Assembly (NCBI RefSeq): GCF_017873415.1
Contig: NZ_JAGGKD010000001.1
Location: 403,973-443,972 of the forward strand
Direction of reading: 5' to 3'
From: Methanolobus bombayensis
GTDB taxonomy: Archaea > Halobacteriota > Methanosarcinia > Methanosarcinales > Methanosarcinaceae
DNA length: 40,000 nt
Numbering within the stretch: position 1 is the stretch's first letter; every line of letters starts with the position of its first letter. A program made the position numbers and the translations under genes. Below are positions 20,328 to 40,000 of the stretch, in pieces. The notes below the pieces were generated by a model, which saw only the letters and a list, made by a program, of their open reading frames with translations, had not been told where the DNA came from and did no database searches.

Positions 20328-20422
20328 ATATTCATAGGGCTTCATAGCATTTCTATGAAAAATAGATATCTCATTGCGTAATATTAATATGTGAACAATA
20401 TATTTAATGACTACTCTTTTAT

Positions 20423-20507: not shown

Positions 20508-20517
20508 TCATTTACCT
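20504..20517. repeat. Target-site duplication copy 1 (CGCATCATTTACCT)
   Basis: This 14-mer is identical to those at 29500-29513 and 38033-38046. It covers the last 4 nt of tRNA-Leu plus 10 nt downstream. The shared string is 16 nt if the two preceding C residues are counted. Confidence 0.85.
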
Positions 20518-20556
20518 GGGATATATACAAGGCGAAAAAAGTGTACGCTTTTGCAA
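20518..20556. repeat. Casposon 1 left terminal inverted repeat
   Basis: GGGATATATACAAGGCGAAAAAAGTGTACGCTTTTGCAA matches the reverse complement of 29461-29499 (GGGATATATACAAGGCGAAAAAAGTGTACGCTTTTGTAA) with one mismatch. Confidence 0.9.
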
Positions 20557-20730
20557 GCATCCCACATAACTATATTATAGAGTTATCAAAGAAAATATTT
20601 TATTTGCATAAATCAGAAGTACAACTCACAGTTTTCTAATATATTCATCTGCTTCGAAATACAATAATTCCACATATGACAAATACAGAAGGAATAAGTC
20701 TATAAATTTAAATACTTCTCAAGCAATTCT

Positions 20731-21366: not shown

Positions 21367-21446
21367 TTTCTACACTTAAAGTTAAAGGGGTAATTAGCTC
21401 ATACTTTATTTGTCAAACAATACTTGCAATTATTTTCAAATTACCT

Positions 21447-23521: not shown

Positions 23522-23627
23522 ACTTATACCCTAGTTGATATAAGAACTATATCATATTTATACCTAATCTTATACTCACTTTCTGTACAGATATGATGAG
23601 GTACATAGTGTTTTATTGTGACTTATT
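23522..23627. promoter_or_regulatory. Divergent control region of the casposon 1 core (between the wHTH-cas1 operon and the RHH-polB operon)
   Basis: This 106-bp AT-rich intergenic region has TATA-like elements (tatatcatatttatacc). About 93% of its first ~88 nt are identical to the equivalent region of casposon 2 (32635-32723), a higher identity than I see in the flanking coding sequence. Confidence 0.5.
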
Positions 23628-23768
23628 ATGTCCGGTAAAGCAAGAATGATAGTTAGCCTTTCTTCTTACCTTAAGGAGAAAGTGGAATCGTACTCTGAGA
23701 AATATGGCTGTTCTCAAGCTGAAGTGGTGAGAATGGCTCTTATAAGGTATCTGGAGGATGAAGAATGA
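23628..23768 (+). CDS. Ribbon-helix-helix (CopG/MetJ-like) small DNA-binding protein
   Basis: Absent from the track (46 aa). My translation is MSGKARMIVSLSSYLKEKVESYSEKYGCSQAEVVRMALIRYLEDEE, which has the beta-strand, helix, helix pattern of RHH proteins. Its stop overlaps the next start (ATGA). Confidence 0.7.
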   Translation: MSGKARMIVSLSSYLKEKVESYSEKYGCSQAEVVRMALIRYLEDEE

Positions 23769-24409
23769 GCAGACCTGAATTTACCAGAGAATACAGGACT
23801 TATGGAGAATGGCTCAAAGCAATGCCAAGAGATACGAGGTATGCAAAGGAGATCATCAGGAAACACCAGATGTTTCCAGATAAGAGCCTGAATCAATTGA
23901 GAAAATTGAAACTATCTGATGCATCTCTTGCATCTAGGTCATTTGATGCATTATCACCCGTACAGCGAGATATGAGAAAAAGAGCTGTTCTTGCAGTAAA
24001 TGACATGAGAAAGGGTAAATCCCTTACCACAGCGGCAAAAGAGCAGGGAATCAGTGTACAGGACGCTCTCAAGCATCTTGGAAATGCAGTGTATAAGAAA
24101 AATGGACGTTGGGTTGCTACAAAGAGCGATGCCATTGAAAGAGGCAGATGGTTCTATTCTAACGGTAAAAGAGTTAGTGTTGTTGTCAAAAATTCAAAGG
24201 ATGCATCACTTGTCAGTAAGTATCTGAATGCTGTCAGGACTGCATTAAGGACAGGAGATGAAGCAGCACTCAAGCCATTCAAGAATGTTACAATAGAGGG
24301 TGCTGATGGGAAGGATTACCCACTTGAGACAGACCTTGAGAAGCTGTATGAGGCAAATGAACAAATCGAGGACTCTGAGTTCTTGCCAATATACGATGAT
24401 AGGAACTAA
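23765..24409 (+). CDS. Conserved casposon protein of unknown function (possible HTH)
   Basis: The 214-aa product is collinear with the gene at 32874-33512. Both start MSRP.F.REYRTYGEW.KA and end ETDL.KLYE..E.IE..EF. It contains an HTH-like segment, SLTTAAKEQGISVQDALKHLG. Confidence 0.6.
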   Translation: MSRPEFTREYRTYGEWLKAMPRDTRYAKEIIRKHQMFPDKSLNQLRKLKLSDASLASRSFDALSPVQRDMRKRAVLAVNDMRKGKSLTTAAKEQGISVQDALKHLGNAVYKKNGRWVATKSDAIERGRWFYSNGKRVSVVVKNSKDASLVSKYLNAVRTALRTGDEAALKPFKNVTIEGADGKDYPLETDLEKLYEANEQIEDSEFLPIYDDRN

Positions 24410-24437
24410 ACAACCTTAATTCAAGCAGGGGATAGGT

Positions 24438-24794
24438 TTGTCCAACGAAGATTTTATTTTGCAGATAAAACAGCAAGCTAAGAGCGAACAGCTTGTTAAA
24501 AATGGTATCTGCGAAATTTGTGGAGAGACTAATCCCTATGCTTTGAAAATCTACGAGAATCATCACATTTCCACAAGAGGCTTTTCGGATGAAACAAGAG
24601 TGCTTTGTCTGAACTGTCATGCTGCTGTAACTCATTTTCAAAATGAACTCCCTCCTAAGTTTAGATCAAGCCAATTACCGCTAGAGGAGAGACTTGACTA
24701 TGTTCTGCTTACACATGCGGCACTCAGGAAAAGAATGGATGAGATTGAGATTGATTTGTTAAGAAAGAGATATGAGGGAATTAAAAATGAATAA
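24438..24794 (+). CDS. HNH endonuclease
   Basis: The 118-aa product has CEICGE...YENHHIS...LCLNCHAAVT, the HNH/zinc-finger pattern. It uses a TTG start. A homologue sits at the same position in casposon 2. Confidence 0.75.
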   Translation: MSNEDFILQIKQQAKSEQLVKNGICEICGETNPYALKIYENHHISTRGFSDETRVLCLNCHAAVTHFQNELPPKFRSSQLPLEERLDYVLLTHAALRKRMDEIEIDLLRKRYEGIKNE

Positions 24795-27483
24795 TGTTGC
24801 ATTGAGGACATTCTCAACAAAAGAGGAAGAGATGAAGAAACAATTTCCTTACACGTATAAACAAGAGATACCTGATTTTTCCAGAGTCTTGACATTCGAT
24901 ACTGAAACAACAGCAGATGAGTTCCTTAACCTGAAGTTTGGCTCGTTCATGGTACATGAGAATGACGTGTATCAATATGCAGGCTTGTTCTGGGATGACA
25001 GACATGTATCAAAAAAAGAGTATAAAGTGCTGAAAGCGTATGCAGAGAAGTACAACATACGCTTATTCTCTCTTGAAGAGTTTATCAAGATATTTTATTT
25101 GGAAATCTACGAAAGAAAAACGCTCTGTATTGGTTATAACATCAACTTCGACCTGTCACGGATAATTTTAGATTATGGGCATGGCAGGTATTCAGGCAAG
25201 GATGGATTCTCCTTCAAACTAACTGAAGATACAACCTATCCACGTCTTCGCATCAAGCACCTGACAGGCAGATCATACAACGTTGAGTTTACAAGAGCAA
25301 AGGGTAAGTACAGGAAAGAGAGGACGTTCAAAGGTCATTTTCTGGATGTAGCCAATCTTGCATGTACATTGACCGACAATAAATCTCTCACACTTGAGAA
25401 GGCTTGTGAGATATTTGATACTCCAATAAAGAAGAAATCAATAAGCAAACATGGAGTAATAACTCCAAACTATATTGATTACAACATTACAGACGTAAGA
25501 TCAACTTATGAGCTATTCAAAAAAGTAAGCCAGGAGTATGAAAGGTATCAGTTGGCGATTCCAATGACTGATATTTACTCTGCTGCTTCTCTTGGAAAGC
25601 AGGCACTTAATCAGTTCAACATTGCACCTTTTATGCAGCATAATAATGATTTTCCTCCTGAACTTATCGGTAATCAGATGAGTGGATACTATGGAGGAAG
25701 ATGTGAGTGCAAGATAAGGAGAACACCTACTAAGGTTACAGTTCTGGATTTCTTCAGTATGTACCCAACTGTAACCCTCCTTCTTGGTCTTTGGGATTTT
25801 GTGATTGCAGATAAAATCCATCATGTTGATGACACAGAGAACGTCAGGCAATTTATTGAAGAATTTACGTTTGAGGATGCTCTTAACCGTGATATTTGGG
25901 AGAAGCTAAACGTTCTTGTTGAAATAGAGCCTGATGATGATATTCTACCTGTTAGAACAAAGTATGCAGGAGAGGATGGAACGTTAAACATCGGTATTAA
26001 TCACATAACAATGAATGAATCGTTGTATTACTTCTTGCCTGACATTCTTGCCTCAAAGCTGCTTACAGGTAAAACTCCCAAGATAAAGAGAGCTATCAGG
26101 TTTATTCCTGAAGGCATACAGGAAAGTCTCACAGAATCAGAAGTCTATGGAGTTCATGTGAATCCAAAAGAGGATAATCTCATCAAAGTTCTCGTTGAAC
26201 GTAGGCAGGAGATTAAGAATGAGATGAAGAAGGTATCAAAGGACTCTCATGACTATGATGTTCTGGATGCACAACAGAGAGCCTTGAAGATTCTTAATAA
26301 TTCCACAACATACGGGATTTATATTGAGATGCATCCAAAGGAAGAGGAAAAACTGAGAGTATTTAGCAACGTTGAGTTTGATTCTAAAGGAAAATATGAA
26401 CAGCCTGGGAAATACTTCAATGCCATCATAGGAGCAAATATTACAGCAGGAGCAAGGCTATTGCTTGCTATTGCAGAGAAGTTTGTGATGGATAAAGGTG
26501 AGGTTCATGCATACATGGATACAGATTCTATTTTTGTTCCTCCGCATCTTGCAGACGAATTGAGTCATCTTTTTGATTCTCTGAATCCTTATGATTTTGA
26601 TAAGCCAATCCTTGAGATTGAGGACGGAATGGAAGACATTTGGTTCTATGGTATCAGTTCCAAGAGATATTGTTTGTTCAGGGAAGAAGGAAATAAGATC
26701 ATCATTCCTGAAGGAAAGAAGCTGTTCTATAAACTGCATGGATTAGGACACATAACAAATCCATTCAAAAGGGAATTGGAGGAAGGAGACCAATGGCACA
26801 AGAAGTTATGGGAGGATATTCTCAGAGTCCATTTTCATCCTGAAGAGCTTCCTGATGTGTTGGAGAAATATGAGAACTATGCTGTAATTTCTAAACTTGC
26901 AGTTTCAACAGGAACAATATTGAGACGATTTGAGAGAATGAACGAAGGGAAGCCATTTGATAAACAAATCAAGCCTTTCAACTTCATGCTTGTTGGGAGT
27001 GGTGCAACAATCAATGAGGATGGGGAGAAGGTCAAGCCTGTTGCTCCTTACAACAATAATCCACAAGTTGCTATTGAGAATGAGTTCATAGACTACAATA
27101 CAGGAGATACGCTTCAAGGAAGGGAATACTGGAAGCCATTAAGTGATGTATTCCTTGATTACATAAATCATCCTGAAGCTAAATTTGAAGGAGATATAGG
27201 AGTACTGCAAAGGAGACATCTTACTCCTACTGGGTGCGTGTATATTGGTAAGGAAGCAAATAAGGTTGAAATGCAGGAATTAGAGAGCAATGAAGTTGAG
27301 ATATACCACGATATAGAGAAGATAAGGGAATTTGTTCTAGGTTTAAAGCCTGATAAAGCTAAAGAGATTGGAATTGAGCATAGGAGCGCATTAAAGCAAT
27401 TGAAGGATAGGGTAAGAGAAGGAGACTTTAATATGAATACTAAATTGATGAGGATGGTAATAGGAAAAATTTATAGTAGATAA
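24772..27483 (+). CDS. polB: Family B DNA polymerase (casposon PolB)
   Basis: The exonuclease motifs are ExoI FDTETT, ExoII YNINFDLSRI and ExoIII YNITDV. The polymerase motifs are A LDFFSMYPT, B KILNNSTTYG, C YMDTDSIF and KxY SSKRY. By homology with the casposon 2 copy, the likely true start is ATG 24787 (MNNVALR...). Confidence 0.9.
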   Translation: MRELKMNNVALRTFSTKEEEMKKQFPYTYKQEIPDFSRVLTFDTETTADEFLNLKFGSFMVHENDVYQYAGLFWDDRHVSKKEYKVLKAYAEKYNIRLFSLEEFIKIFYLEIYERKTLCIGYNINFDLSRIILDYGHGRYSGKDGFSFKLTEDTTYPRLRIKHLTGRSYNVEFTRAKGKYRKERTFKGHFLDVANLACTLTDNKSLTLEKACEIFDTPIKKKSISKHGVITPNYIDYNITDVRSTYELFKKVSQEYERYQLAIPMTDIYSAASLGKQALNQFNIAPFMQHNNDFPPELIGNQMSGYYGGRCECKIRRTPTKVTVLDFFSMYPTVTLLLGLWDFVIADKIHHVDDTENVRQFIEEFTFEDALNRDIWEKLNVLVEIEPDDDILPVRTKYAGEDGTLNIGINHITMNESLYYFLPDILASKLLTGKTPKIKRAIRFIPEGIQESLTESEVYGVHVNPKEDNLIKVLVERRQEIKNEMKKVSKDSHDYDVLDAQQRALKILNNSTTYGIYIEMHPKEEEKLRVFSNVEFDSKGKYEQPGKYFNAIIGANITAGARLLLAIAEKFVMDKGEVHAYMDTDSIFVPPHLADELSHLFDSLNPYDFDKPILEIEDGMEDIWFYGISSKRYCLFREEGNKIIIPEGKKLFYKLHGLGHITNPFKRELEEGDQWHKKLWEDILRVHFHPEELPDVLEKYENYAVISKLAVSTGTILRRFERMNEGKPFDKQIKPFNFMLVGSGATINEDGEKVKPVAPYNNNPQVAIENEFIDYNTGDTLQGREYWKPLSDVFLDYINHPEAKFEGDIGVLQRRHLTPTGCVYIGKEANKVEMQELESNEVEIYHDIEKIREFVLGLKPDKAKEIGIEHRSALKQLKDRVREGDFNMNTKLMRMVIGKIYSR

Positions 27484-27500
27484 AATCTTTAAAAAGAGTT

Positions 27501-28388
27501 GTGACTGGTAAATCTATCAAGGAAATAATTGAAGATCATAAAAAAATCATGTCTTCTCTAAACATCAATAAAACTCTAAATAACTTAAGTAGTTCATTTA
27601 TTCTACCTTCTTCTTTCAATAATGGTAGGCAAAAGTCTTTAAAAAAAGTAATAACCGAGATAAATGAATATGAAAAAGCTGGTAACAACTATTCTGACGA
27701 AATTTGCCACACATGTAATAAAAAAATAAATAGTCATCTATTTTACTCTTTAAGAAAATATGAAGAGGTACAATTAGATGATGATTTGGAATATAGAGTA
27801 GAGGATCAATTAGAAGACAAACTAATTGAATGTAATGATTTTTGTTCAGGCTCTTGCCTTGAAGCATTTTCTGACAAACATGAAGAGACAATTGAGGAAT
27901 ATGAACTATATGAGGTCAGAAGATGTTCTTGTTATTATGACTGTCTTGATCTTGAAAACATAAGAGGGATTTGTGAAAGAGAAGAACGTTTAGATTATGA
28001 ATCTAACCTTTTCCCATCACTTCCATTACATAATTTTTGTGAACCAGCTGACGCAGGCATAATCAAAGCATCAATAAATATTAAAAAGCAATTAGACGAA
28101 GGATCAAAGCAAAATTCAGATCATTTTAAGATAACAGCAGTAATGACTATATTAGTAATATTGTTAACTATCGCCAATATTTTCCTTGTAATTGATACAA
28201 ATTATGAACATCAGCTAGATAGTATAGATGCAAAACTTGGTGCGATTAACAACAGTCTCTCATCTCTTAATAATCAAGCCAATGACATTAATTCTGAACT
28301 AGATCCAAGCACTCTTTTAGTCAGTAGTAATTTAGAAAACTCTCTAGATAATACCAATAAGACAGTTGAATTCTCAAATAAAAGTTGA
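27501..28388 (+). CDS. Hypothetical Cys-rich protein with a C-terminal TM segment (casposon 1 right-arm cargo)
   Basis: The 295-aa product uses a GTG start. It has several Cys clusters (CHTCNKK, CNDFCSGSC, CSCYYDC), one TM segment (ITAVMTILVILLTIANIFLVI) and an N/S-rich tail. It has no counterpart in casposon 2. Confidence 0.5.
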   Translation: MTGKSIKEIIEDHKKIMSSLNINKTLNNLSSSFILPSSFNNGRQKSLKKVITEINEYEKAGNNYSDEICHTCNKKINSHLFYSLRKYEEVQLDDDLEYRVEDQLEDKLIECNDFCSGSCLEAFSDKHEETIEEYELYEVRRCSCYYDCLDLENIRGICEREERLDYESNLFPSLPLHNFCEPADAGIIKASINIKKQLDEGSKQNSDHFKITAVMTILVILLTIANIFLVIDTNYEHQLDSIDAKLGAINNSLSSLNNQANDINSELDPSTLLVSSNLENSLDNTNKTVEFSNKS

Positions 28389-28399
28389 AATATTCAAAT

Positions 28400-28504
28400 A
28401 TGGAAAAAATAATAACATTTATTGTATGCATGATTATATTAGGCATTGCACTCATTGGAGTTTTGCTGTTTTTAGCCTGGTTTGATCCTACTTTATCTAC
28501 GTGA
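28400..28504 (+). CDS. Possible 34-aa hydrophobic peptide
   Basis: Absent from the track. My translation is MEKIITFIVCMIILGIALIGVLLFLAWFDPTLST, a single TM segment. The only evidence is the ORF and its hydrophobicity. Confidence 0.3.
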   Translation: MEKIITFIVCMIILGIALIGVLLFLAWFDPTLST

Positions 28505-28522
28505 GCATAGTGGTTTAGGTGA

Positions 28523-28918
28523 TTATGTCTTTTTAGGAAGCATAAGAAATGGTAGAAAAACTGCTAGGATAATAAGAAGAATGTAAAGTAAAAAGATATA
28601 CATTTTTGTGTAGGATTGTGTTATTTGTATCGAATCTGATGTAAAGATATAATACGAAGAAAAGATTCCAAATAGAACATATAAACCAATTGTTTCAAAA
28701 TAAACTTTGAAAGGAAGACTCTTTTTAGATGCTTTAATATAACTGTTTTTTTGATTTAAGGCTTGAGAAGCTTGGTTACTAGCATATTGGATTTTTGCCA
28801 CAGAATCATAATATTCTTCTATATTTGTTTTGAACGTAAAAAATTTATCGTTATCTGTGTAGCTCAAATTATCAATATCTTCTTGACTCAAATTTGTTAT
28901 TTGATTATTTTCAAGCAT
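28523..28918 (-). CDS. Small protein with a soluble N-terminal helix region and a C-terminal 2-TM hairpin (casposon 1 cargo)
   Basis: The 131-aa product is a paralogue of the adjacent gene. Shared pattern: ...SNQASQALNQKNSYIKASKKSLPF versus ...ESQASSFKQEKEKISYERADKKYIPF. Both then have two TM segments and end in LPKK. Confidence 0.55.
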   Translation of the reverse strand: MLENNQITNLSQEDIDNLSYTDNDKFFTFKTNIEEYYDSVAKIQYASNQASQALNQKNSYIKASKKSLPFKVYFETIGLYVLFGIFSSYYIFTSDSIQITQSYTKMYIFLLYILLIILAVFLPFLMLPKKT

Positions 28919-28929
28919 ATATTATCCCT

Positions 28930-29340
28930 CTATTTTTTAGGGAGAATACGTAAAGGTGTGAGCAACGCAACAACAAAAATTAACGTTATAAAAGAAGCAA
29001 TTAAAGCATAATACTTTAAATTTGTCTCCTCAATTAAAGGTAGCCTAAATATGATAGCAAATAAAAAAACACTTCCACTTATTGCTGTTGCTGCTACTCT
29101 CCAACAATATGACAAGAAAGGTATATATTTTTTATCAGCTCTCTCGTATGATATTTTTTCTTTTTCCTGTTTAAAAGAAGAAGCCTGACTCTCAAATACT
29201 CTTGACAATGACTGGTTATATGATATTTGTTTTTGGATAAAATCGTCAAAATTTCGCCTTTCATCAGCTTTCAATTTCATATAATCTTCAGCTTTGTAAT
29301 TAGTTGCCAACTCTACCGTTAATTGAGTCATATAATCCAC
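28930..29340 (-). CDS. Small protein with a soluble N-terminal helix region and a C-terminal 2-TM hairpin (casposon 1 cargo, paralogue)
   Basis: The 136-aa product has the same architecture as 28523-28918 and lies in tandem with it, 11 nt apart. Confidence 0.55.
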   Translation of the reverse strand: MDYMTQLTVELATNYKAEDYMKLKADERRNFDDFIQKQISYNQSLSRVFESQASSFKQEKEKISYERADKKYIPFLSYCWRVAATAISGSVFLFAIIFRLPLIEETNLKYYALIASFITLIFVVALLTPLRILPKK

Positions 29341-29460
29341 TCCTACTATTATATTATACCAAGAATTTATTATAAAAAGATGCCTATTTTGTTTTGAATG
29401 ACTAATAAAAATATAAAAGTCGGTATTACAAAGTTATGAATATCTGATTTTGTATGAACA

Positions 29461-29499
29461 TTACAAAAGCGTACACTTTTTTCGCCTTGTATATATCCC
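29461..29499. repeat. Casposon 1 right terminal inverted repeat
   Basis: ttacaaaagcgtacacttttttcgccttgtatatatccc is the reverse complement of the left TIR with one mismatch. Confidence 0.9.
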
Positions 29500-29513
29500 C
29501 GCATCATTTACCT
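29500..29513. repeat. Target-site duplication copy 2 (CGCATCATTTACCT), shared junction between the two casposons
   Basis: This copy is identical to the other two. It lies exactly between the right TIR of casposon 1 and the left TIR of casposon 2. Confidence 0.85.
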
Positions 29514-29543
29514 GGGTAATAGGTAACGCCAAAAAACCGAACT
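29514..29543. repeat. Casposon 2 left terminal inverted repeat
   Basis: GGGTAATAGGTAACGCCAAAAAACCGAACT matches the reverse complement of 38003-38032 (GGGTAATAGGTAAGCCCAAAAAACCGAACT) with two adjacent mismatches (CG/GC). Confidence 0.85.
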
Positions 29544-29669
29544 ATGTATGAATATTTCAAACAGTAGCTTTTTTCAAACTACAAAAAAAGAATCAAAAAT
29601 AATCTTTGTTTGTTAGACAATTTTTAATCCCACTAAAGATATAAAGGATAACTTATAAGTAAATCTTAC

Positions 29670-30551
29670 ATGGTTAATGACAATCCTAATATTTTTTACA
29701 AATATCGAAGTGTTAATGAAAATACAATTAAAATGCTAGAAAACCAGGAATTGTATTTTAGTGGTGCTTCAGATTTCAATGATCCTTTTGATTCAAAAGC
29801 TGACTTGATTTGGAGGGGCAATAAAGATGATTGGATGAGCTTTTTATATAGAATGGGTATTAAGAACCATGCACAACGCGAACAATCCATCAAAGAAAAC
29901 CTTAAAAATGGGTCTTTAAGAAATAGAAAAGGAGAATATTTATTAGACCCAAATAGAACTGCTTTTAAGGTACTTAAAGGGAATATTCAACTTAATAATA
30001 AACCTGATTTTCCGAGAGCTTGTTGTTTTAGCGAAGACAACGATAGTATCTTAATGTGGAGTCACTATGCAGATGAGCATAAAGGAATATGCTTATGCTT
30101 TAAATCTAAAATAATAGAGACGGGAGATTTTTTATATTTAGATTCTAATCCTGATCCCTACCTACTTTTTCCAATAACATATCAAGAAGACATGCCTGAA
30201 CAAGTAAACATGTTGAGCAGTTATGAACCTGAAGAATTGGTATCTTTTTTATGCACCAAACATTTTGATTGGAAGTATGAAAAAGAGCGTCGTTTGATAA
30301 TGTGGCCTATTGATTTCAATACTCATGGGCAATATACTAAAAAATTTAGAAAAGAAGATTTAGAAGGAATTATTTTTGGGTTGAATACCCCTACTGACCA
30401 TATAAAAATGATTAAGACGATTATAGACGAACAATACCTTAAAGAAGGTTTTAAAGTTAATTTCTATAAGGCTCAGGAATTGCAAAAAAAATATGGTATT
30501 TATATTAAGCCAATAGACGATTTAGATAAGCACATAGAAAAATACTGTTAG
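29670..30551 (+). CDS. DUF2971-family protein (casposon 2 left-arm cargo)
   Basis: The 293-aa product has IFYKYRSVNENTIKMLENQELYFSGASDFNDPFDS and CFSEDNDSILMWSHYADEHKGICLCF. Both match the DUF2971 signature as I remember it. Confidence 0.65.
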   Translation: MVNDNPNIFYKYRSVNENTIKMLENQELYFSGASDFNDPFDSKADLIWRGNKDDWMSFLYRMGIKNHAQREQSIKENLKNGSLRNRKGEYLLDPNRTAFKVLKGNIQLNNKPDFPRACCFSEDNDSILMWSHYADEHKGICLCFKSKIIETGDFLYLDSNPDPYLLFPITYQEDMPEQVNMLSSYEPEELVSFLCTKHFDWKYEKERRLIMWPIDFNTHGQYTKKFRKEDLEGIIFGLNTPTDHIKMIKTIIDEQYLKEGFKVNFYKAQELQKKYGIYIKPIDDLDKHIEKYC

Positions 30552-30559
30552 AAAACACA

Positions 30560-31762
30560 TCAATAATTGTCCCATATCTCCAATCTTTCCCTTACATGAG
30601 AGTTTAGAGTAAATGGCTTATCAGCCTCAGCATTCTTCTTCATGTAATGGAGAGTACCTTTTGAGAAACCCATTTTCTTCCAGTCAGAATATGATATGCT
30701 CAATATCTTTTGCCTAATATCATCTGAATCCTGTCTTTCAACACTATAAGCAGGCTTACTGAAATCAAGTGTTTTCCTTTTCCCAACAAGATACTGAGCA
30801 AGCTCCCTAGTTTTCAACAATAAGGCATAACTCCACATAACAGACTGCTTCTTGTATGGAACTTTTTTGTTCATCCAGTTATTGAACTCTTCAGTCACCT
30901 TCTTAGCTCCTGAAGGTTTAAGCCTAAGTGAATAGCTCTCAGTCCTGATAAAGTCTGTATTATCCATCTTCTTGGACTCAATAAGACTGATTACAGCCAT
31001 ATCAACAAGGAATCTGAAAGGCTCTTGAAGATCATAAGCTAGACTGTTCTTACTTGGATTCATCTCATGTAAAAAACCTACATGAGCATCAAGACCTGCT
31101 GTATTAATTGCTCTTAGGCATTCAGCTTCAAGCAAAGCATATCCATAATTAAGCATGACATTAACTTTGTCTCCTGCTCCTGTTGCTCTCCTGTATTGGT
31201 CTATCCTTGAACAGAAATCATATTCTTCTGGAATAGCTTTGTTAAACTCGTTCCAGTATTTCCAAGCAACTCCGCCTTCAATCCCCATTATTTCCCTAAT
31301 GTTTTTAGCAGATTTTAGTTTTTCAATATCCTCTGAGAAATCATAATCTATTGCAGGATACCTTTGCTTCAGATAATCCATAACTACAATGGATTTATCA
31401 AACTTTGCTTCAATGAACTTCCTTGCTATCTTGATTCTGCTTTCTTCATCCTCAAAAGCATGATACTGAACAAACTTAGTCTTAACATTGGTAGTTTCAG
31501 GAGGTTGTAAGGTACTTAGAATTTTACCGTTCCAATCAAGGAAAGTAACCTGAACATTGTGTTTAATCAACCATCTGACAGCATCAAGAGTCAGATTTCC
31601 ATTCCTGCCATAAACAATGATGTGGTCTATATCCATCCGCTTTGGAGAGTAAACATACTCTTCAGGTTCTTCAGTAGATGAAGTTCTGCCATTCTTGATA
31701 TGCAGTTTAGCACCACTAACACGCATATCTATTCCATGACCATTGAGAAGAAGCATTTTCAT
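30560..31762 (-). CDS. cas1: Cas1-family integrase (casposase)
   Basis: The 400-aa product is collinear with, and clearly homologous to, the gene at 21447-22649. It carries the same motifs (MGIEGG, VGFLHEMNPSKNSLAYDLQEPFRFLVD, C-terminal GFSKGTLHYMKKNA). Confidence 0.9.
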   Translation of the reverse strand: MKMLLLNGHGIDMRVSGAKLHIKNGRTSSTEEPEEYVYSPKRMDIDHIIVYGRNGNLTLDAVRWLIKHNVQVTFLDWNGKILSTLQPPETTNVKTKFVQYHAFEDEESRIKIARKFIEAKFDKSIVVMDYLKQRYPAIDYDFSEDIEKLKSAKNIREIMGIEGGVAWKYWNEFNKAIPEEYDFCSRIDQYRRATGAGDKVNVMLNYGYALLEAECLRAINTAGLDAHVGFLHEMNPSKNSLAYDLQEPFRFLVDMAVISLIESKKMDNTDFIRTESYSLRLKPSGAKKVTEEFNNWMNKKVPYKKQSVMWSYALLLKTRELAQYLVGKRKTLDFSKPAYSVERQDSDDIRQKILSISYSDWKKMGFSKGTLHYMKKNAEADKPFTLNSHVRERLEIWDNY

Positions 31763-32634
31763 TAAAATCCCTCCACATCAGCATTATTCTGAACAAAAGG
31801 ATCATCATACATTCCAAGATGAATCATGGCTCTAACTCTTACCTGAGAAATGAACTGAGCAGACTCTTCTTTTCCCTCTAGTCTTAATTTTTCCTCAAAT
31901 TCATAGAGGTCTTCCCTATGTTCCTCTATTACATGTGCTGTATAGTTAGAGTCATAATCTTCCATTTCATGAAGGTTATCTAATTCCTCTGAATCCTTTT
32001 TTAGCCAATCAATAACAGCACTATCATTGTAGTGTCCTAGTAAATAGATAAAATGAGTTCTAAGGTTCTTATGTCTATGAGGTAATGGCTTAGGATATTT
32101 AGACAATAAACCTCTAAGCATCTTAATAGCTTCTGGTTTGTTATAGGGTTCTATATTCTTTATGTCTATATAGGTATAGACTATTCTTAGGATATGGTCT
32201 ATAAGGTCTATATCCTCTGTGTCTAGTTGGGCTATAAGTATGTCTAATTGACTAGGGTTAAGAGTATATCGTTTCTTATATTTTTCAAGCTCTTTAAGAG
32301 CCATTTTTTGTATAATAGGATTATTCGAGGCTATTTTTCCTATAATCGTATCTATATGTCTCTTTATTTCCTCTGTTTTTTTAAGAGTAAAAAAGCTAGC
32401 TCTACCATCCTCTACTCTTATCCCTGCTTTTTTAAGAGCATCCCCTTTAAGTTTAATCACTATGCCCCTTTTTACCATACTGTCTAACTTTCGATTGATA
32501 CTCTTCTCACTATAACCACTATCTTTTTTGTGTCTGTTTTTTAGAGTTAGTATGAGTTGTGCTCTTCTAACATACCCTTGTTTTGATAATATGTCTTTAA
32601 CCTCTAGGTCAAAATTTAACCCTTTTTTATACAT
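31762..32634 (-). CDS. Winged-helix DNA-binding protein with a helical-repeat C-terminal domain (casposon core gene)
   Basis: The 290-aa product is a homologue of the gene at 22649-23521. Its stop overlaps the cas1 start. Confidence 0.7.
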   Translation of the reverse strand: MYKKGLNFDLEVKDILSKQGYVRRAQLILTLKNRHKKDSGYSEKSINRKLDSMVKRGIVIKLKGDALKKAGIRVEDGRASFFTLKKTEEIKRHIDTIIGKIASNNPIIQKMALKELEKYKKRYTLNPSQLDILIAQLDTEDIDLIDHILRIVYTYIDIKNIEPYNKPEAIKMLRGLLSKYPKPLPHRHKNLRTHFIYLLGHYNDSAVIDWLKKDSEELDNLHEMEDYDSNYTAHVIEEHREDLYEFEEKLRLEGKEESAQFISQVRVRAMIHLGMYDDPFVQNNADVEGF

Positions 32635-32736
32635 AATTATACCCTACTTGATATAAGAAATATATCATATTTATACCTAATCTTATACTCAGTTTCTGTA
32701 CAGGTATGATGAGTTACATAGTGTATTTTGACTAAC
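32635..32736. promoter_or_regulatory. Divergent control region of the casposon 2 core
   Basis: This is the counterpart of 23522-23627 and is nearly identical in sequence, including the TATA-like tatatcatatttatacc. Confidence 0.5.
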
Positions 32737-32877
32737 ATGACTCACAAAGAAAGACTTGTAATAAGCCTTTCTTCTTACCTTAAGGAGAAAGTGGAATCGT
32801 ACTCTGAGAAATATGGCTGTTCTCAAGCTGAAGTAGTGAGAATTGCTCTCATACGGTATCTGGAGGATGCAGCATGA
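32737..32877 (+). CDS. Ribbon-helix-helix small DNA-binding protein
   Basis: Absent from the track (46 aa). My translation is MTHKERLVISLSSYLKEKVESYSEKYGCSQAEVVRIALIRYLEDAA. Its stop overlaps the next start. Confidence 0.7.
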   Translation: MTHKERLVISLSSYLKEKVESYSEKYGCSQAEVVRIALIRYLEDAA

Positions 32878-33512
32878 GCAGACCTCAATTTTCCAGAGAA
32901 TACAGAACTTATGGGGAATGGTTCAAAGCTCAACCCAGGAACACAAAGTATGCAAAAGAGATCATCAGGAAACATAAACTATTTCCAGATAAGAGCCTGA
33001 GCCAACTAAGAAACCTTAGAATAAGTGACTATGACCTGAGCCAAACAGCATGGAAAACTCTCACATCTCAACAGAAGAGAGATAGAAACCTAGCTCTTGA
33101 GGTTTTAAGATCTATTAGAAAGGGCGAATCACTAACTCAGGCTTTGAAGAAAAGAGGACTCAGAAAGGATTTCGTACTCAAAAATCTTGGTAATCAACTT
33201 CAGAAGTCAAAAGGAAAATGGGTTGCAACTAAGACAGACAGCTTAGAAGTTGAAATGTTGGTTTATACAAAAGATGGAGTAAGAACCGTTGTAGCCACAT
33301 CTTCTAAAGACAGGAGCAGGATTGCAAAATACTTCAATGATGTACAGAAGGCATTGAAGAATAATGATTCCTCAATACTTGCCAAATACAAGAGAATGAA
33401 GCTCATTGATGCTGAAGGAAATGAACATCATTTTGAAACAGACCTTGACAAACTGTATGAGATACAGGAAACAATAGAAGAGCCTGAATTTTTGGAGATT
33501 TATCAGAACTGA
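32874..33512 (+). CDS. Conserved casposon protein of unknown function
   Basis: The 212-aa product is a homologue of the gene at 23765-24409. Confidence 0.6.
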   Translation: MSRPQFSREYRTYGEWFKAQPRNTKYAKEIIRKHKLFPDKSLSQLRNLRISDYDLSQTAWKTLTSQQKRDRNLALEVLRSIRKGESLTQALKKRGLRKDFVLKNLGNQLQKSKGKWVATKTDSLEVEMLVYTKDGVRTVVATSSKDRSRIAKYFNDVQKALKNNDSSILAKYKRMKLIDAEGNEHHFETDLDKLYEIQETIEEPEFLEIYQN

Positions 33513-33515
33513 GGA

Positions 33516-33857
33516 GTGGATACTATGAGTAAAGAAACCTATGCAAATACCGTAAAGAGAAGTAAAAAAGGAGAGATACCACACCTTGCATGTGTTGTAT
33601 GTGGGGAAGATGATCCCGATTTGATAGAGATGCATCATGTTGATGGAAGGAATAATTCAGAGTGGAAAAAACCTCTCTGTAAGAATCATCATTTCAAGGT
33701 AACAATGAAGCAAAATAAAGTAAGCCCAAAAGCAAGGTCAAAAGACACTTCTTTGCAGAACCTTAGAGCTTTTAATATAATCTCTATTGGGGCTTTAGTT
33801 GTTGAACTTGGAAACCGCTTGATAAAAGTTGGATATGAGATGGTTGAAAATGTCTGA
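33516..33857 (+). CDS. HNH endonuclease
   Basis: The 113-aa product has CVVCGE...EMHHVDG...LCKNHHFKVT. The track start is GTG 33516, and an ATG at 33525 follows a GGAG. Confidence 0.75.
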   Translation: MDTMSKETYANTVKRSKKGEIPHLACVVCGEDDPDLIEMHHVDGRNNSEWKKPLCKNHHFKVTMKQNKVSPKARSKDTSLQNLRAFNIISIGALVVELGNRLIKVGYEMVENV

Positions 33858-36510
33858 TAAGCTAGCACTTAGGGTTTATACACAGAAGGCAGGTAAGAAA
33901 AAAACCACGCCTTCTACTTTTAAAGAAGACCTCATCCTTCATCATAGAAGGGTATTAGTCTTTGATACTGAAACTACAACAGATCAATACCAAAACATGA
34001 AGATAGGTTTCTTTCAAATCTATCAGGATGGAGGAATACAGCATGAAGGGTTATTTTATGATCCTTCTATGCTTGATGAAGAGGAAACTGAGGTCTTTAA
34101 GGAATATTCTCTCAAGAATGACATTTCTCTTTACACTCTTGAAGAGTTTGTTGATGATGTATTTTATCCAGAGGTCTTGGGTTTCAAAGCTCTTTGTGTA
34201 GGATTCAATTTACCATTTGACATAAGCAGGATAGCTAAAAAGGTTGGGGATTCAAGAGGATATAATAAAGGAGGTTTTACTTTTACTCTCTCCGATAAAG
34301 AAGAGAATCCTCAAATTGTCATTAAAAAACTTGGCTCAGCATACAGTTTCAAGTTGAATGGAACAAAGGAGAATCAGGGCAAAAACAGGCATAATGGTTA
34401 TTTTATCGATGCTCAGACGCTTGCTGAGGTTTTACTTCAAAAAAAGCATATTTCCCTTGAAAAAGCCTGCAAGTTCCTCAAAACAAAAACTCAGAAAATA
34501 GAAGGCGTAGAACATGGAAAAGTAACTGACGAGTATATTGATTATCTTATCACGGATGTTCGCGCAACTTGGGAAGTATATGAGAAACTTATAGATGAAT
34601 TAAGGATTTATCAAATCAATATCCCACCTACGAAAATATACAGTAATGCTTCAGTTGGTAAATATGCATTAAAGCAGTTAGGAGTAAAACCTTTCCTTGA
34701 ATTGAATCCTGATTTCTCTCCTGTATTGCTTGGAAACATCATGTCTTCTTATTATGGAGGGAGATGCGAATGCAAGATAAGAAAAGTACCTACTAAGGTT
34801 ACAGTCCTTGATTTTACAAGCATGTATCCAACGGTTACAATGCTTCTTGATCTCTGGAAGTTCATTATTGCTGAAAGTATTGAAACAAAGGATGTAACAG
34901 AGAAAATTAAAGAGTTACTTTCAAACATAAACCTTGAGTTCTTTCAAAATAAGGATAATTGGAAGGACTTTGTTGTAATGGTTAAGTTACATCCAGATGA
35001 GGACATTTTGCCTGTAAGGAAGAATTACAAGGGAGATGGAAGTGCGTATAATGTGGGTGTCAATAATCTGACATCTGACTTTGAACTATGGTATGCTTTA
35101 CCTGATGTTATAAGCTCAGTTCTTTTAACTGGAAAAGTACCTGAGATTGTGGAAGCTGTTAAATTTATTCCAGTAGGCATTCAGGAAGGTTTGAAGGAAA
35201 CAGAGATTCTTGGAATTAAGATTAATCCTAGAAAGGAGAACTTAGTTCAGGTTCTTGTTGAGGAAAGACAAAAGATAAAACAGGAATTAGAGACTTTAAA
35301 TAAAGAGCACCCTGATTATCAGCACCTTAAGAGCAGGGCACAGGCTATTAAGATTCTAGTTAACTCAATGAGTTATGGAATCTTTATTGAACTGAATCCA
35401 GAGGATAAGAAAAGCACTATTGAAGTACATGGGTTAGATAGTTTTGAAACAACAGATAACAAGTATGAGAAAGAAGGAAAATATTTCCATCCTCTGCTTG
35501 CTTCAATGATTACGTCGGGTTCAAGATTATTCTTAGCTATGGCTGAAGCTAAAGTAAAGGAACTTGGTTCTGTTCATGCTTACATGGATACTGATAGTAT
35601 TTTTGTCATTCCAGAACATGCTCAGGAAGTTGTTGATTATTTCAACAAGCTAAATCCTTACAATCCTGAACTTGATATTCCTCTTTTAAAGAAAGAAGAC
35701 GGGAAAGAAGATGTGTGGTTCTATGGTATCTCTTCAAAGCGTTATGTTCTTTACAGGATTATTGATGGGAAGTTTGAGCTAGTAGATTACAAGTTGCATG
35801 GTCTTGGTCATTTAACAAACCCATTTTCAAATAAAGATGATTGGCAACAGGAAATATGGTTAGATATTCTTATGGTACGTTATGGAATTGTAAAACCTGA
35901 AGACATTGAGCTTAAGTATTCTACTATGTATGCAATTTCTAGGCTTACTGTCAGTACTCCTAATGTTCTGCATAGGTTTGATAAGTTAAATGAAGGAAAG
36001 GAGTGGAAAGAGATGATAAAACCTTTTAATTTCTTCCTTGTTGGCTTCCAGACAAAAGAAGAGAACAATAAAGCTGTCAAGCCTTTAGCTCCTTTTACAA
36101 AGGACTATCAGAGGATAGTCTATGAGTATTTCATAGATTATGAAACAGGAGAGAGGAAAAAAGGAGTACATTATTTTAAGCCATTGAGTAGGACAATATC
36201 TCAGTATGCAGAGCATCCAGAACATAAATTTGAAGGAGGCATAGGAGTATTGGAAAGAAAACACGTTCATGCTAAGGATACTATTGAGATAGGAAAGGAA
36301 GCTAACAGCATAGATGAGCAGTCTCTTGGAGTCAAGAAAGCACAGGAATTCAGGAATAAGGAGAAGATCATGCAGAAAATACTCAATATTTCTGTATCTG
36401 AAGCTAAGGAATTAGGAGTTCCTAAGACTACATTATGGGATATGCAGAAAAGGATAAGGGAAACAGGAAAATTGAATTTGGGTACTCCTGCTGTGAGGAA
36501 GATGATATGA
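33829..36510 (+). CDS. polB: Family B DNA polymerase (casposon PolB)
   Basis: The exonuclease motifs are ExoI FDTETT, ExoII FNLPFDISRI and ExoIII YLITDV. The polymerase motifs are A LDFTSMYPT, B KILVNSMSYG, C YMDTDSIF and KxY SSKRY. The likely true start is ATG 33850 (MSDKLALR...). Confidence 0.9.
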   Translation: MDMRWLKMSDKLALRVYTQKAGKKKTTPSTFKEDLILHHRRVLVFDTETTTDQYQNMKIGFFQIYQDGGIQHEGLFYDPSMLDEEETEVFKEYSLKNDISLYTLEEFVDDVFYPEVLGFKALCVGFNLPFDISRIAKKVGDSRGYNKGGFTFTLSDKEENPQIVIKKLGSAYSFKLNGTKENQGKNRHNGYFIDAQTLAEVLLQKKHISLEKACKFLKTKTQKIEGVEHGKVTDEYIDYLITDVRATWEVYEKLIDELRIYQINIPPTKIYSNASVGKYALKQLGVKPFLELNPDFSPVLLGNIMSSYYGGRCECKIRKVPTKVTVLDFTSMYPTVTMLLDLWKFIIAESIETKDVTEKIKELLSNINLEFFQNKDNWKDFVVMVKLHPDEDILPVRKNYKGDGSAYNVGVNNLTSDFELWYALPDVISSVLLTGKVPEIVEAVKFIPVGIQEGLKETEILGIKINPRKENLVQVLVEERQKIKQELETLNKEHPDYQHLKSRAQAIKILVNSMSYGIFIELNPEDKKSTIEVHGLDSFETTDNKYEKEGKYFHPLLASMITSGSRLFLAMAEAKVKELGSVHAYMDTDSIFVIPEHAQEVVDYFNKLNPYNPELDIPLLKKEDGKEDVWFYGISSKRYVLYRIIDGKFELVDYKLHGLGHLTNPFSNKDDWQQEIWLDILMVRYGIVKPEDIELKYSTMYAISRLTVSTPNVLHRFDKLNEGKEWKEMIKPFNFFLVGFQTKEENNKAVKPLAPFTKDYQRIVYEYFIDYETGERKKGVHYFKPLSRTISQYAEHPEHKFEGGIGVLERKHVHAKDTIEIGKEANSIDEQSLGVKKAQEFRNKEKIMQKILNISVSEAKELGVPKTTLWDMQKRIRETGKLNLGTPAVRKMI

Positions 36511-36522
36511 GTTGTTTTGTTG

Positions 36523-37833
36523 CTAAATAATAACTCTGGATTTTAGTAAATATGTTCGGGCTCCATTTGAAACAGCTTGTTCTCTGCTTACTAATTTTTT
36601 GTCAACCAAAGATATTACAATTCTTGAACATTTACGTGAGTCAACCTCAAGCTTCTTCCAAAGTTGATTTTGATAAATATCATCTTCTGCGATGATTATT
36701 TCTAACGCAACCCTCTCTAATTGTGTTAAACCTTTTTTATCAGATGGTGTTAAAATAGGTTTTACAGGAATGTTTCCCACTTTGACTAGAAGATTAGCAT
36801 ATAAGTCAATTAATTCCTGACAAAAGTTATAACTTATGGGAAGAACACCTACCATTTCACCCTTCTTTGCGTCATTCCAAGCAAAACCCTCAATTCCAAT
36901 ATTAAAATTTAAACCTGCAACTAGCTGTTCATCTGAGTTTTTTATACTAATCTGTTGGTTATCATGTAAGTCTTCGGTTGCAAGTGCAATAATACAGTCA
37001 TCAAATTGAGATAAGATTTGTTCAGCTGTTTCTTTAAAAAATATATATTCATCCTTGATTTCTTTTTCTTTACTTAAAAAAGCAGACTTTTCTTCAAATA
37101 ATTTTGAATTATAATTAACCAACTGATAAAAATTTTTTAATATTCTTTTTCTACTTGCAAATAATAATTTAATATTTCGAATTTGTTCTTTTTCTTTTTT
37201 TGATTCTTGGAACAGACCATGATATAAACATTTATCTCCTTTCGATAAACAAGATTTTTCAAAATATCTTGCAACAAACCTTTCTGCACTCTCTTTTGAT
37301 TGTCCTGTTAGTTGAACAAGAGCATTAATTCCACCTTCTTTATATACTGCATACCTTTCTGCTTCTAGTCTTTCTTGTTCTTGTATTTCCTTTCCTACAT
37401 TCTCTTTTAAAATCTTGATGTGCTCTTTTCTTTCTTTTTCTTCCCAACTAAGTTTTTCAATATTTGTGTATGTATTATTTAAGTAATTATGAACAAAATA
37501 TTGAAGACTAGCTGTGTTTTTTCCTGTTAATTTAGTAAGAGCCTGAATACCCCACATTTCATAAATTCTAATTTTTTCATAATTATAAAAAAGGATATTT
37601 CCGTTTACAAAACGTGACATAAAATTTACATCTGATTTACATGCTTTACAAAACCATTTATTCCTTTCTCCCAAAAATTCCACAGATGGTTTAAAGCAAT
37701 ACGGACAAACAATTGATGTTTTCTTAACAAGTGATTCGGTTTCATCAATTTTAAAAACTTCATGTCTAAATTGATTAATTTCCTTTATTGTATATTTTGT
37801 ATCATTTTCGGTTTTTTCCATCAGCTCACCCAA
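36523..37833 (-). CDS. Hypothetical protein with an N-terminal zinc ribbon, an internal duplicated motif and a C-terminal wHTH (casposon 2 right-arm cargo)
   Basis: The 436-aa product has CPYCF...CKACKS. An internal motif is duplicated (GIQALTKLTGKNTASLQYFVHNY and GINALVQLTGQSKESAERFVARYF). The C-terminus has a MarR-like wHTH (NQLWKKLEVDSRKCSRIVISLVDKKLVSRE). It has no counterpart in casposon 1. Confidence 0.55.
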   Translation of the reverse strand: MGELMEKTENDTKYTIKEINQFRHEVFKIDETESLVKKTSIVCPYCFKPSVEFLGERNKWFCKACKSDVNFMSRFVNGNILFYNYEKIRIYEMWGIQALTKLTGKNTASLQYFVHNYLNNTYTNIEKLSWEEKERKEHIKILKENVGKEIQEQERLEAERYAVYKEGGINALVQLTGQSKESAERFVARYFEKSCLSKGDKCLYHGLFQESKKEKEQIRNIKLLFASRKRILKNFYQLVNYNSKLFEEKSAFLSKEKEIKDEYIFFKETAEQILSQFDDCIIALATEDLHDNQQISIKNSDEQLVAGLNFNIGIEGFAWNDAKKGEMVGVLPISYNFCQELIDLYANLLVKVGNIPVKPILTPSDKKGLTQLERVALEIIIAEDDIYQNQLWKKLEVDSRKCSRIVISLVDKKLVSREQAVSNGARTYLLKSRVII

Positions 37834-38002
37834 AAACCATAATCTTGCAATAACAAAACTTCATTATAACATAAATATTACGGAATAAAAAAGAAAACAT
37901 TTTTGAATTTTATTTTAATACTCGTATTATATATGTCATAATATTATTATTAGGAGTTCCGTTTTTCTCAAATTGACAGGAAAAATTAGAGTTTTTTATG
38001 GA

Positions 38003-38032
38003 AGTTCGGTTTTTTGGGCTTACCTATTACCC
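38003..38032. repeat. Casposon 2 right terminal inverted repeat
   Basis: agttcggttttttgggcttacctattaccc is the reverse complement of the left TIR with 2 mismatches. Confidence 0.85.
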
Positions 38033-38046
38033 CGCATCATTTACCT
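38033..38046. repeat. Target-site duplication copy 3 (CGCATCATTTACCT)
   Basis: This copy is identical to copies 1 and 2. It is followed by the presumed original tRNA-Leu downstream flank (ttcaagttccc...). Confidence 0.85.
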
Positions 38047-38186
38047 TTCAAGTTCCCTGAATGTAAGTTACTGAATGTATGCAGATACCATTTTTTGTTT
38101 ACACCTTGGACACATTGGTCTTGTCATAATGTCACCTGGAAAAGTGCAACGCAAAAGGCTTTTATGGCTCAAAAATAATCTACTAA

Positions 38187-38213
38187 TTAGAAAAAGGACT
38201 GCCATAATGGCAG
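38187..38213 (-). terminator. Possible terminator hairpin plus T-run on the minus strand, beyond the CRISPR trailer end
   Basis: On the minus strand a CTGCCAT-T-ATGGCAG stem-loop is followed by TCCTTTTTCT. The position and orientation fit termination of a right-to-left pre-crRNA. The evidence is sequence only. Confidence 0.3.
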
Positions 38214-38288
38214 CCACGATTTCCGCGAGGGTGATTTCTAGCTCGAACTTAAAATCACCCTTGCATATTAGCAAACTTATTTTCTCAC

Positions 38289-40000
38289 CTCCTCTTGCGT
38301 TGGTATATTACAATTTGATTTTGAATACATTCTCTGCCGATTCTTACGCCACGAGATTAGTGTTTCAATCCTTGTTTTAGTGGATCTTGATTTTGAATGA
38401 TGGAGTTCTTCAGGAATGGTGTGATTGTACCTTTGTTTCAATCCTTGTTTTAGTGGATCTTGATTTTGAATCCGTCAATTATTACAATTTTGTATCCCAA
38501 TTCAACAGCTTTTAGTTTCAATCCTTGTTTTAGTGGATCTTGATTTTGAATTATTTTACAGTAATGAGCCTTAACTCATTACTTTTAGTTTCAATCCTTG
38601 TTTTAGTGGATCTTGATTTTGAATATCAGAGGTATTTGCAGCCGGTGAAACAGTTACATGTTTCAATCCTTGTTTTAGTGGATCTTGATTTTGAATAATA
38701 TGCTTTTCCTCGTTGAGAACCAGCATAATTGTTTCAATCCTTGTTTTAGTGGATCTTGATTTTGAATCTCCATTTCATTAATTGCTGTATTAGGCTGATA
38801 TCGTTTCAATCCTTGTTTTAGTGGATCTTGATTTTGAATTTGTTAATGTATTCCATTTTAATAGTACCATTCTTTTGTTTCAATCCTTGTTTTAGTGGAT
38901 CTTGATTTTGAATGATACGAGAATAACATAGCAATAGCAGCTATGATAAGTTTCAATCCTTGTTTTAGTGGATCTTGATTTTGAATTATTCCATTGGTGT
39001 TGAATATGATATACCTCCATTGTTTCAATCCTTGTTTTAGTGGATCTTGATTTTGAATTTATCAATTATCTTGACCGCAACCATATGAGATAATCCAGTT
39101 TCAATCCTTGTTTTAGTGGATCTTGATTTTGAATTGATTCTATCTTCTTTAATCTTCTCTGTTCCTTAAGTTTCAATCCTTGTTTTAGTGGATCTTGATT
39201 TTGAATGATAAATTGTGAACATTTTCAGTAAGTTTAGACATGATAGTTTCAATCCTTGTTTTAGTGGATCTTGATTTTGAATAAAATGAGTTATATTAAT
39301 ATCGTTTCTAGTATCAAGTTTCAATCCTTGTTTTAGTGGATCTTGATTTTGAATTCTTTCATCGGTATATACACATTTAACATTGAGGTTTCAATCCTTG
39401 TTTTAGTGGATCTTGATTTTGAATGCTTGTAAACGGTGGCATGTGATAAGTTTTCTTATAGTTTCAATCCTTGTTTTAGTGGATCTTGATTTTGAATCAG
39501 TTAAGAACAATTGGGGCAGTGATAATGTATATGGTTTCAATCCTTGTTTTAGTGGATCTTGATTTTGAATAAATGGCTCATTGCATATTTCAATATCGTA
39601 ACCATTGTTTCAATCCTTGTTTTAGTGGATCTTGATTTTGAATTGCTATCCATCAGGTACTTTCATCTTCATTATTGAGTTTCAATCCTTGTTTTAGTGG
39701 ATCTTGATTTTGAATCTAACCATAATTCGTATAGAAAAATCATCATGATATGTTTCAATCCTTGTTTTAGTGGATCTTGATTTTGAATTAGAAAATATTT
39801 TAGATGATAGATTTATCGTTTATAAGTTTCAATCCTTGTTTTAGTGGATCTTGATTTTGAATCTGCTGTCATTGGTTATTATATTGTTTTTATGGGAGTT
39901 TCAATCCTTGTTTTAGTGGATCTTGATTTTGAATAAAATTTTTGCTTCACTAGCTGCAAGCTCTTCACAGTTTCAATCCTTGTTTTAGTGGATCTTGATT
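38289..40000 (-). CRISPR. CRISPR array of 37-nt repeats; continues past the window end
   Basis: There are 22 identical repeats GTTTCAATCCTTGTTTTAGTGGATCTTGATTTTGAAT, the first at 38362-38398. One more repeat is truncated at 39970-40000. A degenerate copy at 38289-38325 matches 23/37, including the last 12 nt. The 23 spacers are unique and 33-43 nt long. The minus-strand repeat ends in ATTGAAAC, which is why I assign the minus strand. Confidence 0.95.

Follow-up and report, generated by a model that had tools for sequence, protein, structure and literature searches.

Casposons are thought to be ancestral to the adaptation module of CRISPR systems, and a casposon pair that lies directly beside a CRISPR array therefore invites ideas of interplay between the two. 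Such a neighbourhood occurs in a 40,000-nucleotide stretch of the Methanolobus bombayensis genome (hereafter the window; G000:C1:403973-443972, where G000 is this genome of 35 contigs and 3.12 Mb), in which two casposons, A and B, self-replicating transposons of the Cas1 type, follow a tRNA-Leu gene and end close to a type I-B array. The question raised by this locus is whether the adjacency reflects targeting of the casposons by CRISPR spacers, enzymatic cross-talk between casposases and CRISPR adaptation, or simply the position of the tRNA-Leu target. Related genomes give a plain explanation, namely that the target tRNA was already there; the adjacency is very probably coincidental and inherited from tRNA-Leu, with no support for CRISPR targeting and next to none in the sequence for cross-talk.

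The tRNA-Leu target at the array trailer

The neighbourhood is defined by the following features of the window, in which TSD and TIR denote target site duplication and terminal inverted repeat.

20422-20509, plus strand: tRNA-Leu(TAG), the casposon target gene (ARAGORN; Rfam tRNA 20423-20507)
20518-29499, no strand: casposon A, family 2 (52-nt TIRs at 87%; TSD/TIR/Cas1/PolB layout)
29514-38032, no strand: casposon B, family 2 (30-nt TIRs at 93%; TSD/TIR/Cas1/PolB layout)
38290-38326, minus strand: degenerate repeat that ends the array at its trailer (23/37 identity to the consensus)
38362-40000 in the window, minus strand: type I-B CRISPR array, which crosses the window edge (37-nt perfect repeats; Rfam CRISPR-DR7)

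In three Methanolobus relatives (G032, G033, and G034), this tRNA-Leu also borders the trailer of the corresponding I-B array, and no casposon is present. In G033, the counterpart of 38031-38361 (89% identity) comes directly after tRNA-Leu and is itself followed by the array. In G032 and G034, whose array repeat is the same and whose leader is nearly identical, the end of tRNA-Leu is fused directly to the degenerate terminal repeat (overlapping junctions at G032:C1 ~806750-806830 and G034:C16 ~23800-24000); the terminal repeat of G034 is 27/37 identical to the consensus and begins 1 nt before the last base of tRNA-Leu. As a consequence of this overlap, 10-11 of the 14 bp of the casposon target lie inside a CRISPR repeat in G032 and G034. 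Since tRNA-Leu lies at the array in relatives that are free of casposons, the adjacency of tRNA and array is ancestral and older than the casposons. The three genomes thus support the possibility, already allowed for in the preliminary description of this DNA, that the adjacency is coincidental and the tRNA-Leu target simply lies beside the array.

The whole array (G000:C1:442334-447350) consists of 69 perfect 37-nt repeats and the degenerate one, with 69 spacers of 33-43 nt, and is matched by Rfam CRISPR-DR7 on the minus strand (51.6 bits). The 23 spacers counted earlier are the right number for the window, and the array's own Cas1, which had been described as lying outside the window, does so, at G000:C1:448376-449344, 4.4 kb past the window end. 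The last perfect repeat is followed by a leader of ~110 bp and then by the minus-strand genes cas4-cas2-cas1-cas6b-cas3-cas5-cas7-cas8b, a complete I-B gene set by NCBIfam and Pfam matches (L001:3491-11666), and the 120 nt next to the last repeat on the leader side are conserved in relatives. Because the leader and the cas operon are at the far end, 5.3 kb off, the casposons abut the trailer, which is the oldest end of the array, and not the leader. The closeness of the casposons to the trailer, given earlier as a gap of 242 bp before a degenerate repeat starting at 38289, holds apart from a trivial one-base shift: the repeat is present but starts at 38290 (only 12/37 positions are identical at 38289-38325), and the gap is therefore 243 bp (38047-38289).

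The locus resembles other methanogen type I-B systems (e.g., Methanosarcina mazei Go1) in its cas8b-cas7-cas5-cas3-cas6b-cas1-cas2-cas4 gene set, its 37-nt CRISPR-DR7 repeat, and its degenerate trailer repeat, and is unlike them in the position of its trailer repeat, which adjoins the 3' end of the tRNA-Leu that serves as casposon target, either fused to it or within ~240 bp. A three-spacer block is duplicated within the array, spacers 17-19 (39571-39751) being exactly the same as spacers 48-50 (window-equivalent 41845-42025, L002). The array of G033 has seven repeats, then ~2.4 kb of other DNA, and then one more leader-side repeat (G033:C11 reverse complement, 20607-23034 of the first 40 kb), which suggests that it has been interrupted by an insertion. 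G000 has a second array at C12:7378-9601, with 37 repeats of 29 nt and 33-nt spacers, and a divergent Cas1 at C12:10197-10535; its repeat has no match in Rfam and presumably resembles that of type I-E systems.

Anatomy of the casposon pair

The components of the two casposons and the three copies of their TSD are as follows.

20504-20517, plus strand: TSD copy 1, CGCATCATTTACCT, located by sequence
21447-22649, minus strand: casposase of casposon A (400-aa Cas1, PF01867, E ~1e-69)
24772-27483, plus strand: PolB of casposon A (903-aa open reading frame (ORF), PF00136 / PF03175)
29500-29513, plus strand: TSD copy 2, CGCATCATTTACCT, common to casposons A and B
30560-31762, minus strand: casposase of casposon B (400-aa Cas1, PF01867, E ~1e-69)
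33829-36510, plus strand: PolB of casposon B (893-aa ORF, PF00136 / PF03175)
38033-38046, plus strand: TSD copy 3, CGCATCATTTACCT

The pair consists of ordinary family-2 casposons at their usual target, the 3' end of tRNA-Leu. Each has a casposase with an extra C-terminal (helix-turn-helix, HTH) region, a PolB, TIRs that start with GGG and end with CCC, and a CGCA-type TSD at tRNA-Leu, as is characteristic of family 2. The terminal CGCA of tRNA-Leu(TAG) (20504-20507) forms the opening 4 bp of the TSD, which continues with AT-rich sequence, and the third 14-bp copy ends at 38046, as had been described, by the position of CGCATCATTTACCT. Casposase A aligns with the M. mazei casposase 6OPM over residues 1-398 (E 1.4e-183), including the C-terminal 60-70 residues. 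The two casposases share 70% identity with one another, and 28% with the array's own Cas1; by the former value, casposons A and B are two different elements and not the product of a duplication. Residues 190-192 are YRR in both casposases and align to FRR of 6OPM; R191 and R192, which read the CGCA motif in the M. mazei casposase (PMC6977970), are retained.

In M. mazei, the 14-bp TSD has CGCA at its start and coincides there with the final 4 bp of tRNA-Leu (PMC6977970, PMC10359463), and the casposase needs a 30-bp upstream determinant in its target (PMC6977970); the site tLEU1, CGCATCAAATTTCT (PMC10359463), compares with the TSD CGCATCATTTACCT. Tandem casposons with one common TSD at tRNA-Leu are also known in Methanosarcina (PMC4779613), and the family-2 casposons of that genus (MetMaz1FA1A3-C2 at tRNA-Leu and the tandem Met2HT1A3-C1/C2; PMC4779613, PMC6977970) are the system with which the Methanolobus pair can be compared. 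Both have a Cas1 with a C-terminal HTH, PolB, CCC-ending TIRs, a 14-bp CGCA TSD that overlaps the last 4 bp of tRNA-Leu, and a tandem pair with one common TSD. The differences lie in the host, Methanolobus, in the target tRNA-Leu, which here borders a CRISPR array, and in the members of the pair, which are only 70% identical in casposase, unlike the Methanosarcina tandem. In the Methanosarcina sp. 2.H.T.1A strains one copy is inactivated, whereas the casposase and PolB frames are uninterrupted in both casposon A and casposon B, and the two elements are apparently intact as far as can be read from the DNA.

By analogy with the M. mazei enzyme, the casposase would read ~30 bp of the tRNA and CGCA, cut with a 14-bp stagger, and join the casposon ends, and integration would regenerate a usable site beside tRNA-Leu at which a second element could land in tandem. 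Two different family-2 casposons would in this way have been inserted successively into the 3' end of tRNA-Leu(TAG), and because tRNA-Leu already lay at the I-B trailer in this Methanolobus lineage, they would have come to lie beside the array by position alone.

Casposon-related DNA is present in 35 of the 36 Methanolobus genomes searched, often as several copies and fragments. In G000, a second tandem casposon pair occupies tRNA-Leu(TAA) on contig C2, with no array nearby; its first element (183458-198680) has perfect 34-nt TIRs and the TSD CGCACCTGCGCATT, and its second is a decayed B-type partner that reaches to ~206400, starts with the B-type end GGGTAATAGG, and carries a truncated casposase. 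The order of an A-type followed by a B-type element is the same in the C2 pair and in the window, and more casposase fragments occur in G000 on contigs C11, C3, C4, and C2. Upstream of the target gene, 20239-20327 matches 20377-20465 at 83% identity and consists of the 5' portion of a truncated tRNA-Leu together with the region preceding it. This truncated tRNA-Leu lies ~95 bp upstream of the intact gene, with its tRNA-like part at ~20284-20327, and is apparently also found in G032, while G033 has a single copy.

Spacer matches and the 236-bp insert

Matches between spacers and casposons would show that the host treats casposons as invaders, as the preliminary description had proposed. The spacer set comprises 306 spacers, of which 105 are from G000 itself (69 from the I-B array and 36 from the second array) and 201 are from arrays with the same I-B repeat in six relatives (G006, G014, G020, G032, G033, and G034). 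The casposon search space of ~347 kb consists of casposon-bearing loci of G000 and of other Methanolobus and Methanosarcinaceae genomes, and the relatives' spacers were also compared with the G000 genome and 20 casposon-bearing loci. None of the 306 spacers has a casposon match that stands out from the shuffled controls. The best ungapped full-length identity to casposons A and B is 70%, within the range of shuffled spacers (65-76%), and against the ~347 kb of casposon loci the spacers give a mean of 0.647 and a maximum of 0.758 (shuffled spacers: mean 0.642, maximum 0.730). No self-target is found in the whole G000 genome with its arrays masked, where the best match is one of 24 nt with one mismatch between a C12-array spacer and C1:2531-2554, outside the casposons. 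A comparison of the whole I-B array with GenBank phages and PLSDB plasmids returned nothing relevant, and matches to related casposons, viruses, and plasmids are lacking throughout the searched casposon loci, GenBank phages, and PLSDB. Among 36 Methanolobus genomes, the whole I-B array finds only other arrays and orphan repeats and no protospacers, so that no protospacer adjacent motif can be derived, and no spacer is common to any two of the genomes compared.

It is extremely improbable, then, that the host CRISPR systems treat casposons as invaders and hold spacers that match them. No point in favour was found, the best partial matches being of 15-20 nt and as many as chance predicts; the 306 spacers score like shuffled ones against the casposons, the masked genome, and the ~347 kb of loci, and four casposon copies together with matching spacers in one genome would mean self-targeting. 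For the arrays examined, this reading is largely refuted.

The sole match of the relatives' spacers to the G000 genome and the 20 casposon-bearing loci is that of a G034 spacer to an insert in the gap between the tRNA-Leu end and the array trailer, which contains the following features.

38047-38282, no strand: insert of 236 bp between the tRNA-Leu end and the array trailer (comparison of G000, G032, G033, and G034)
38190-38275, plus strand favoured by G.U-only changes: 86-nt two-hairpin element (folding and comparison of copies)
38197-38215, minus strand: terminator-like hairpin with a T5 tail, downstream in the direction of array transcription
38213-38249, no strand: stretch with a perfect match (37/37) to spacer 57 of the 71 in the I-B array of G034 (spacer comparison)
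38283-38292, plus strand: 10-nt TCTCACCTCC in its second copy; the first, at 20494, stands just before CGCA in tRNA-Leu

The insert is present in G000 and G033 and absent from G032 and G034. The 10-nt TCTCACCTCC has six copies in the 3.1-Mb genome, three of which are tRNA-Leu 3' ends, and the sequence from the right junction of the insert through the degenerate repeat is homologous to the tRNA-repeat junction of G034 (0/500 shuffles reach the score). The copy at 38283 probably marks the displaced ancestral junction of the tRNA end and the terminal repeat, and the insert is probably the remnant of a mobile element that was once integrated in tRNA-Leu, older than the casposons and separate from them. 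It is similar to the remnants of archaeal proviruses and plasmids integrated at tRNA genes in lying 3' of a tRNA, in the copy of the tRNA end at its border, in its patchy distribution, and in being matched by a spacer of a relative. It is unlike them in that only 236 bp are left, with no integrase and a repeat of only 10 nt, and for these reasons its assignment is a matter of inference. No element genes are found in the insert; a 101-aa ORF (38075-38380) is without family and extends into the array. Separately, the sequence just after TSD copy 3 was considered as another decayed repeat and rejected, as 106/500 shuffles reach its score.

Self-targeting selects for deletion of the target, and the insert might alternatively have been ancestral to all four genomes and then lost in G032 and G034, possibly after the G034 lineage gained a self-targeting spacer. 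G034 does hold a perfect spacer against the insert, yet is without the insert itself. Such a history is nevertheless unlikely, since insertion better accounts for the tRNA-end direct repeat that bounds the insert and for the survival of an ancestral-type junction at its right edge, the other copies of the 86-nt element lie in unrelated, mobile-element-like contexts, and G032 has neither the insert nor any such spacer.

The 86-nt element within this probable remnant has folding z values of -5.2 (plus strand) and -6.1 (minus strand). Four copies differ by three compensatory pairs and five one-sided changes; all of the latter are G.U if the plus strand is read and C.A if the minus strand is, and a fifth copy (C4) adds one more wobble change that pairs only on the plus strand (read by eye). 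Searched with a covariance model, 151 genomes of the family yield only five copies, spread over 3 genomes, which are the two trailer copies (G000 and G033), G000:C2:13163-13252, G000:C4:270425-270517, and G028:C2:3134502-3134587. The G028 copy lies among genes for a terminase large subunit, a dUTPase, Tad6, and ParA, the C4 copy lies within a McrBC / JAB / UvrD-nuclease island, and a TTTTA box ~35 nt upstream is invariant in all five copies. Rfam has no family for the element, pattern scans of IMG/VR and JGI metagenome contigs contain no copy of it, and the neighbours of the other copies have no matches in PHROGs. The element may be a small RNA gene of mobile origin, and by its identity to the spacer it is a predicted target of the CRISPR array of the related strain G034, the flank of the protospacer at 38213-38249 being TTA on the strand with the sense of the CRISPR RNA (crRNA).

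The minus-strand hairpin at 38197-38215 is hairpin 1 of the element in reverse complement, and its T5 tail makes it resemble a terminator at which the convergent transcript of the pre-crRNA would end. Taken with the T-run that follows hairpin 2 on the plus strand, it could mean that the hairpins do no more than terminate, in both directions, the convergent transcripts of tRNA-Leu and the pre-crRNA. This is quite unlikely, because the 86-nt unit recurs in three other contexts with three compensatory pairs, the wobble changes (five, and one in the C4 copy) pair only on the plus strand, the C2 and C4 copies have not kept the T tails, and the TTTTA box is invariant upstream of every copy. Casposon B carries in its right arm a 436-aa cargo gene (36523-37833, minus strand) that has the same direction as pre-crRNA transcription, and read-through from the array would reach it unless halted at the hairpin (38215-38197).

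Possible cross-talk between casposases and CRISPR adaptation

It remains to be weighed whether the adjacency reflects or enables cross-talk, in which the casposase would act on the leader-repeat junction or the repeat, or CRISPR Cas1-Cas2 on the casposon ends. This is very unlikely. In its favour, the arginines that read CGCA are retained in both casposases, 10-11 bp of the casposon target lie within the terminal repeat of G032 and G034, the leader begins with a TSD-like 14-mer 2 nt after the first repeat, and a CRISPR-associated CARF protein, MM_0565, induces cas1-solo in M. mazei (PMC7465815). The last of these is a published regulatory link from the I-B locus to the casposon; it is transcriptional and independent of adjacency. 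Against cross-talk, the casposons are located at the trailer end, with the leader 5.3 kb distant, the second casposon pair (C2) is far from any array, no casposon-sized or TIR-bearing insert occurs in the array, and the TIRs have no similarity to the CRISPR repeat. When the 44-nt target (30 bp of tRNA and the TSD) was scanned against the genome, the top matches were other tRNA-Leu genes (33-39/44), and the best site in the CRISPR-cas locus reached 25/44, which is background, with 204 sites genome-wide at 24 or more.

Three points nonetheless weigh against the coincidental reading. The first is the leader 14-mer itself: past the leader-proximal repeat the leader starts with AG and then CGCAAATATTTCCT (G000:C1:447351-447366; L001:3379-3394), a CGCA followed by AT-rich sequence in the manner of the TSD, which is kept in 5/6 related leaders (it is found in G006, G020, G032, and G033, whereas G034 has CACA there, a point against cross-talk), and CGCA with six A/T occurs at ~5e-5 per position. 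This hint, that the leader-repeat junction may serve the casposase as a minimal site, is weak and post hoc, a lead and not evidence; the sequence there agrees with the 44-nt target at 19/44 positions with CGCA in register (hand count), and the 30-bp upstream determinant is absent. The second is that the spacer negatives cover same-repeat arrays in seven genomes and the second array of G000, and no other array types in the genus. The third is that a mobile origin is deduced for the insert from a 10-nt repeat, its context, and its patchy distribution, with no integrase or longer attachment (att) site surviving. These points leave a coincidental adjacency as very much the favoured explanation. 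That the I-B locus is a natural site at which casposase and CRISPR Cas1-Cas2 act on overlapping DNA is highly improbable; if true, the locus would offer a present-day parallel to the step that has been proposed to lead from a casposon target site to a CRISPR repeat.

The only unusual points of the locus are the small structured element and the overlap of casposon target and terminal repeat in the relatives. The negative outcome of the spacer comparisons fits casposons as tolerated residents, and the locus provides two naturally paired casposases, apparently intact and within a single host, with the same target and different TIRs. The junctions of G032 and G034, where the target overlaps the terminal repeat, would be ready-made substrates for work on cross-reactivity between casposases and CRISPR adaptation, and a small structured element of apparently mobile origin, which a related strain seems to target by CRISPR, may be useful to others.

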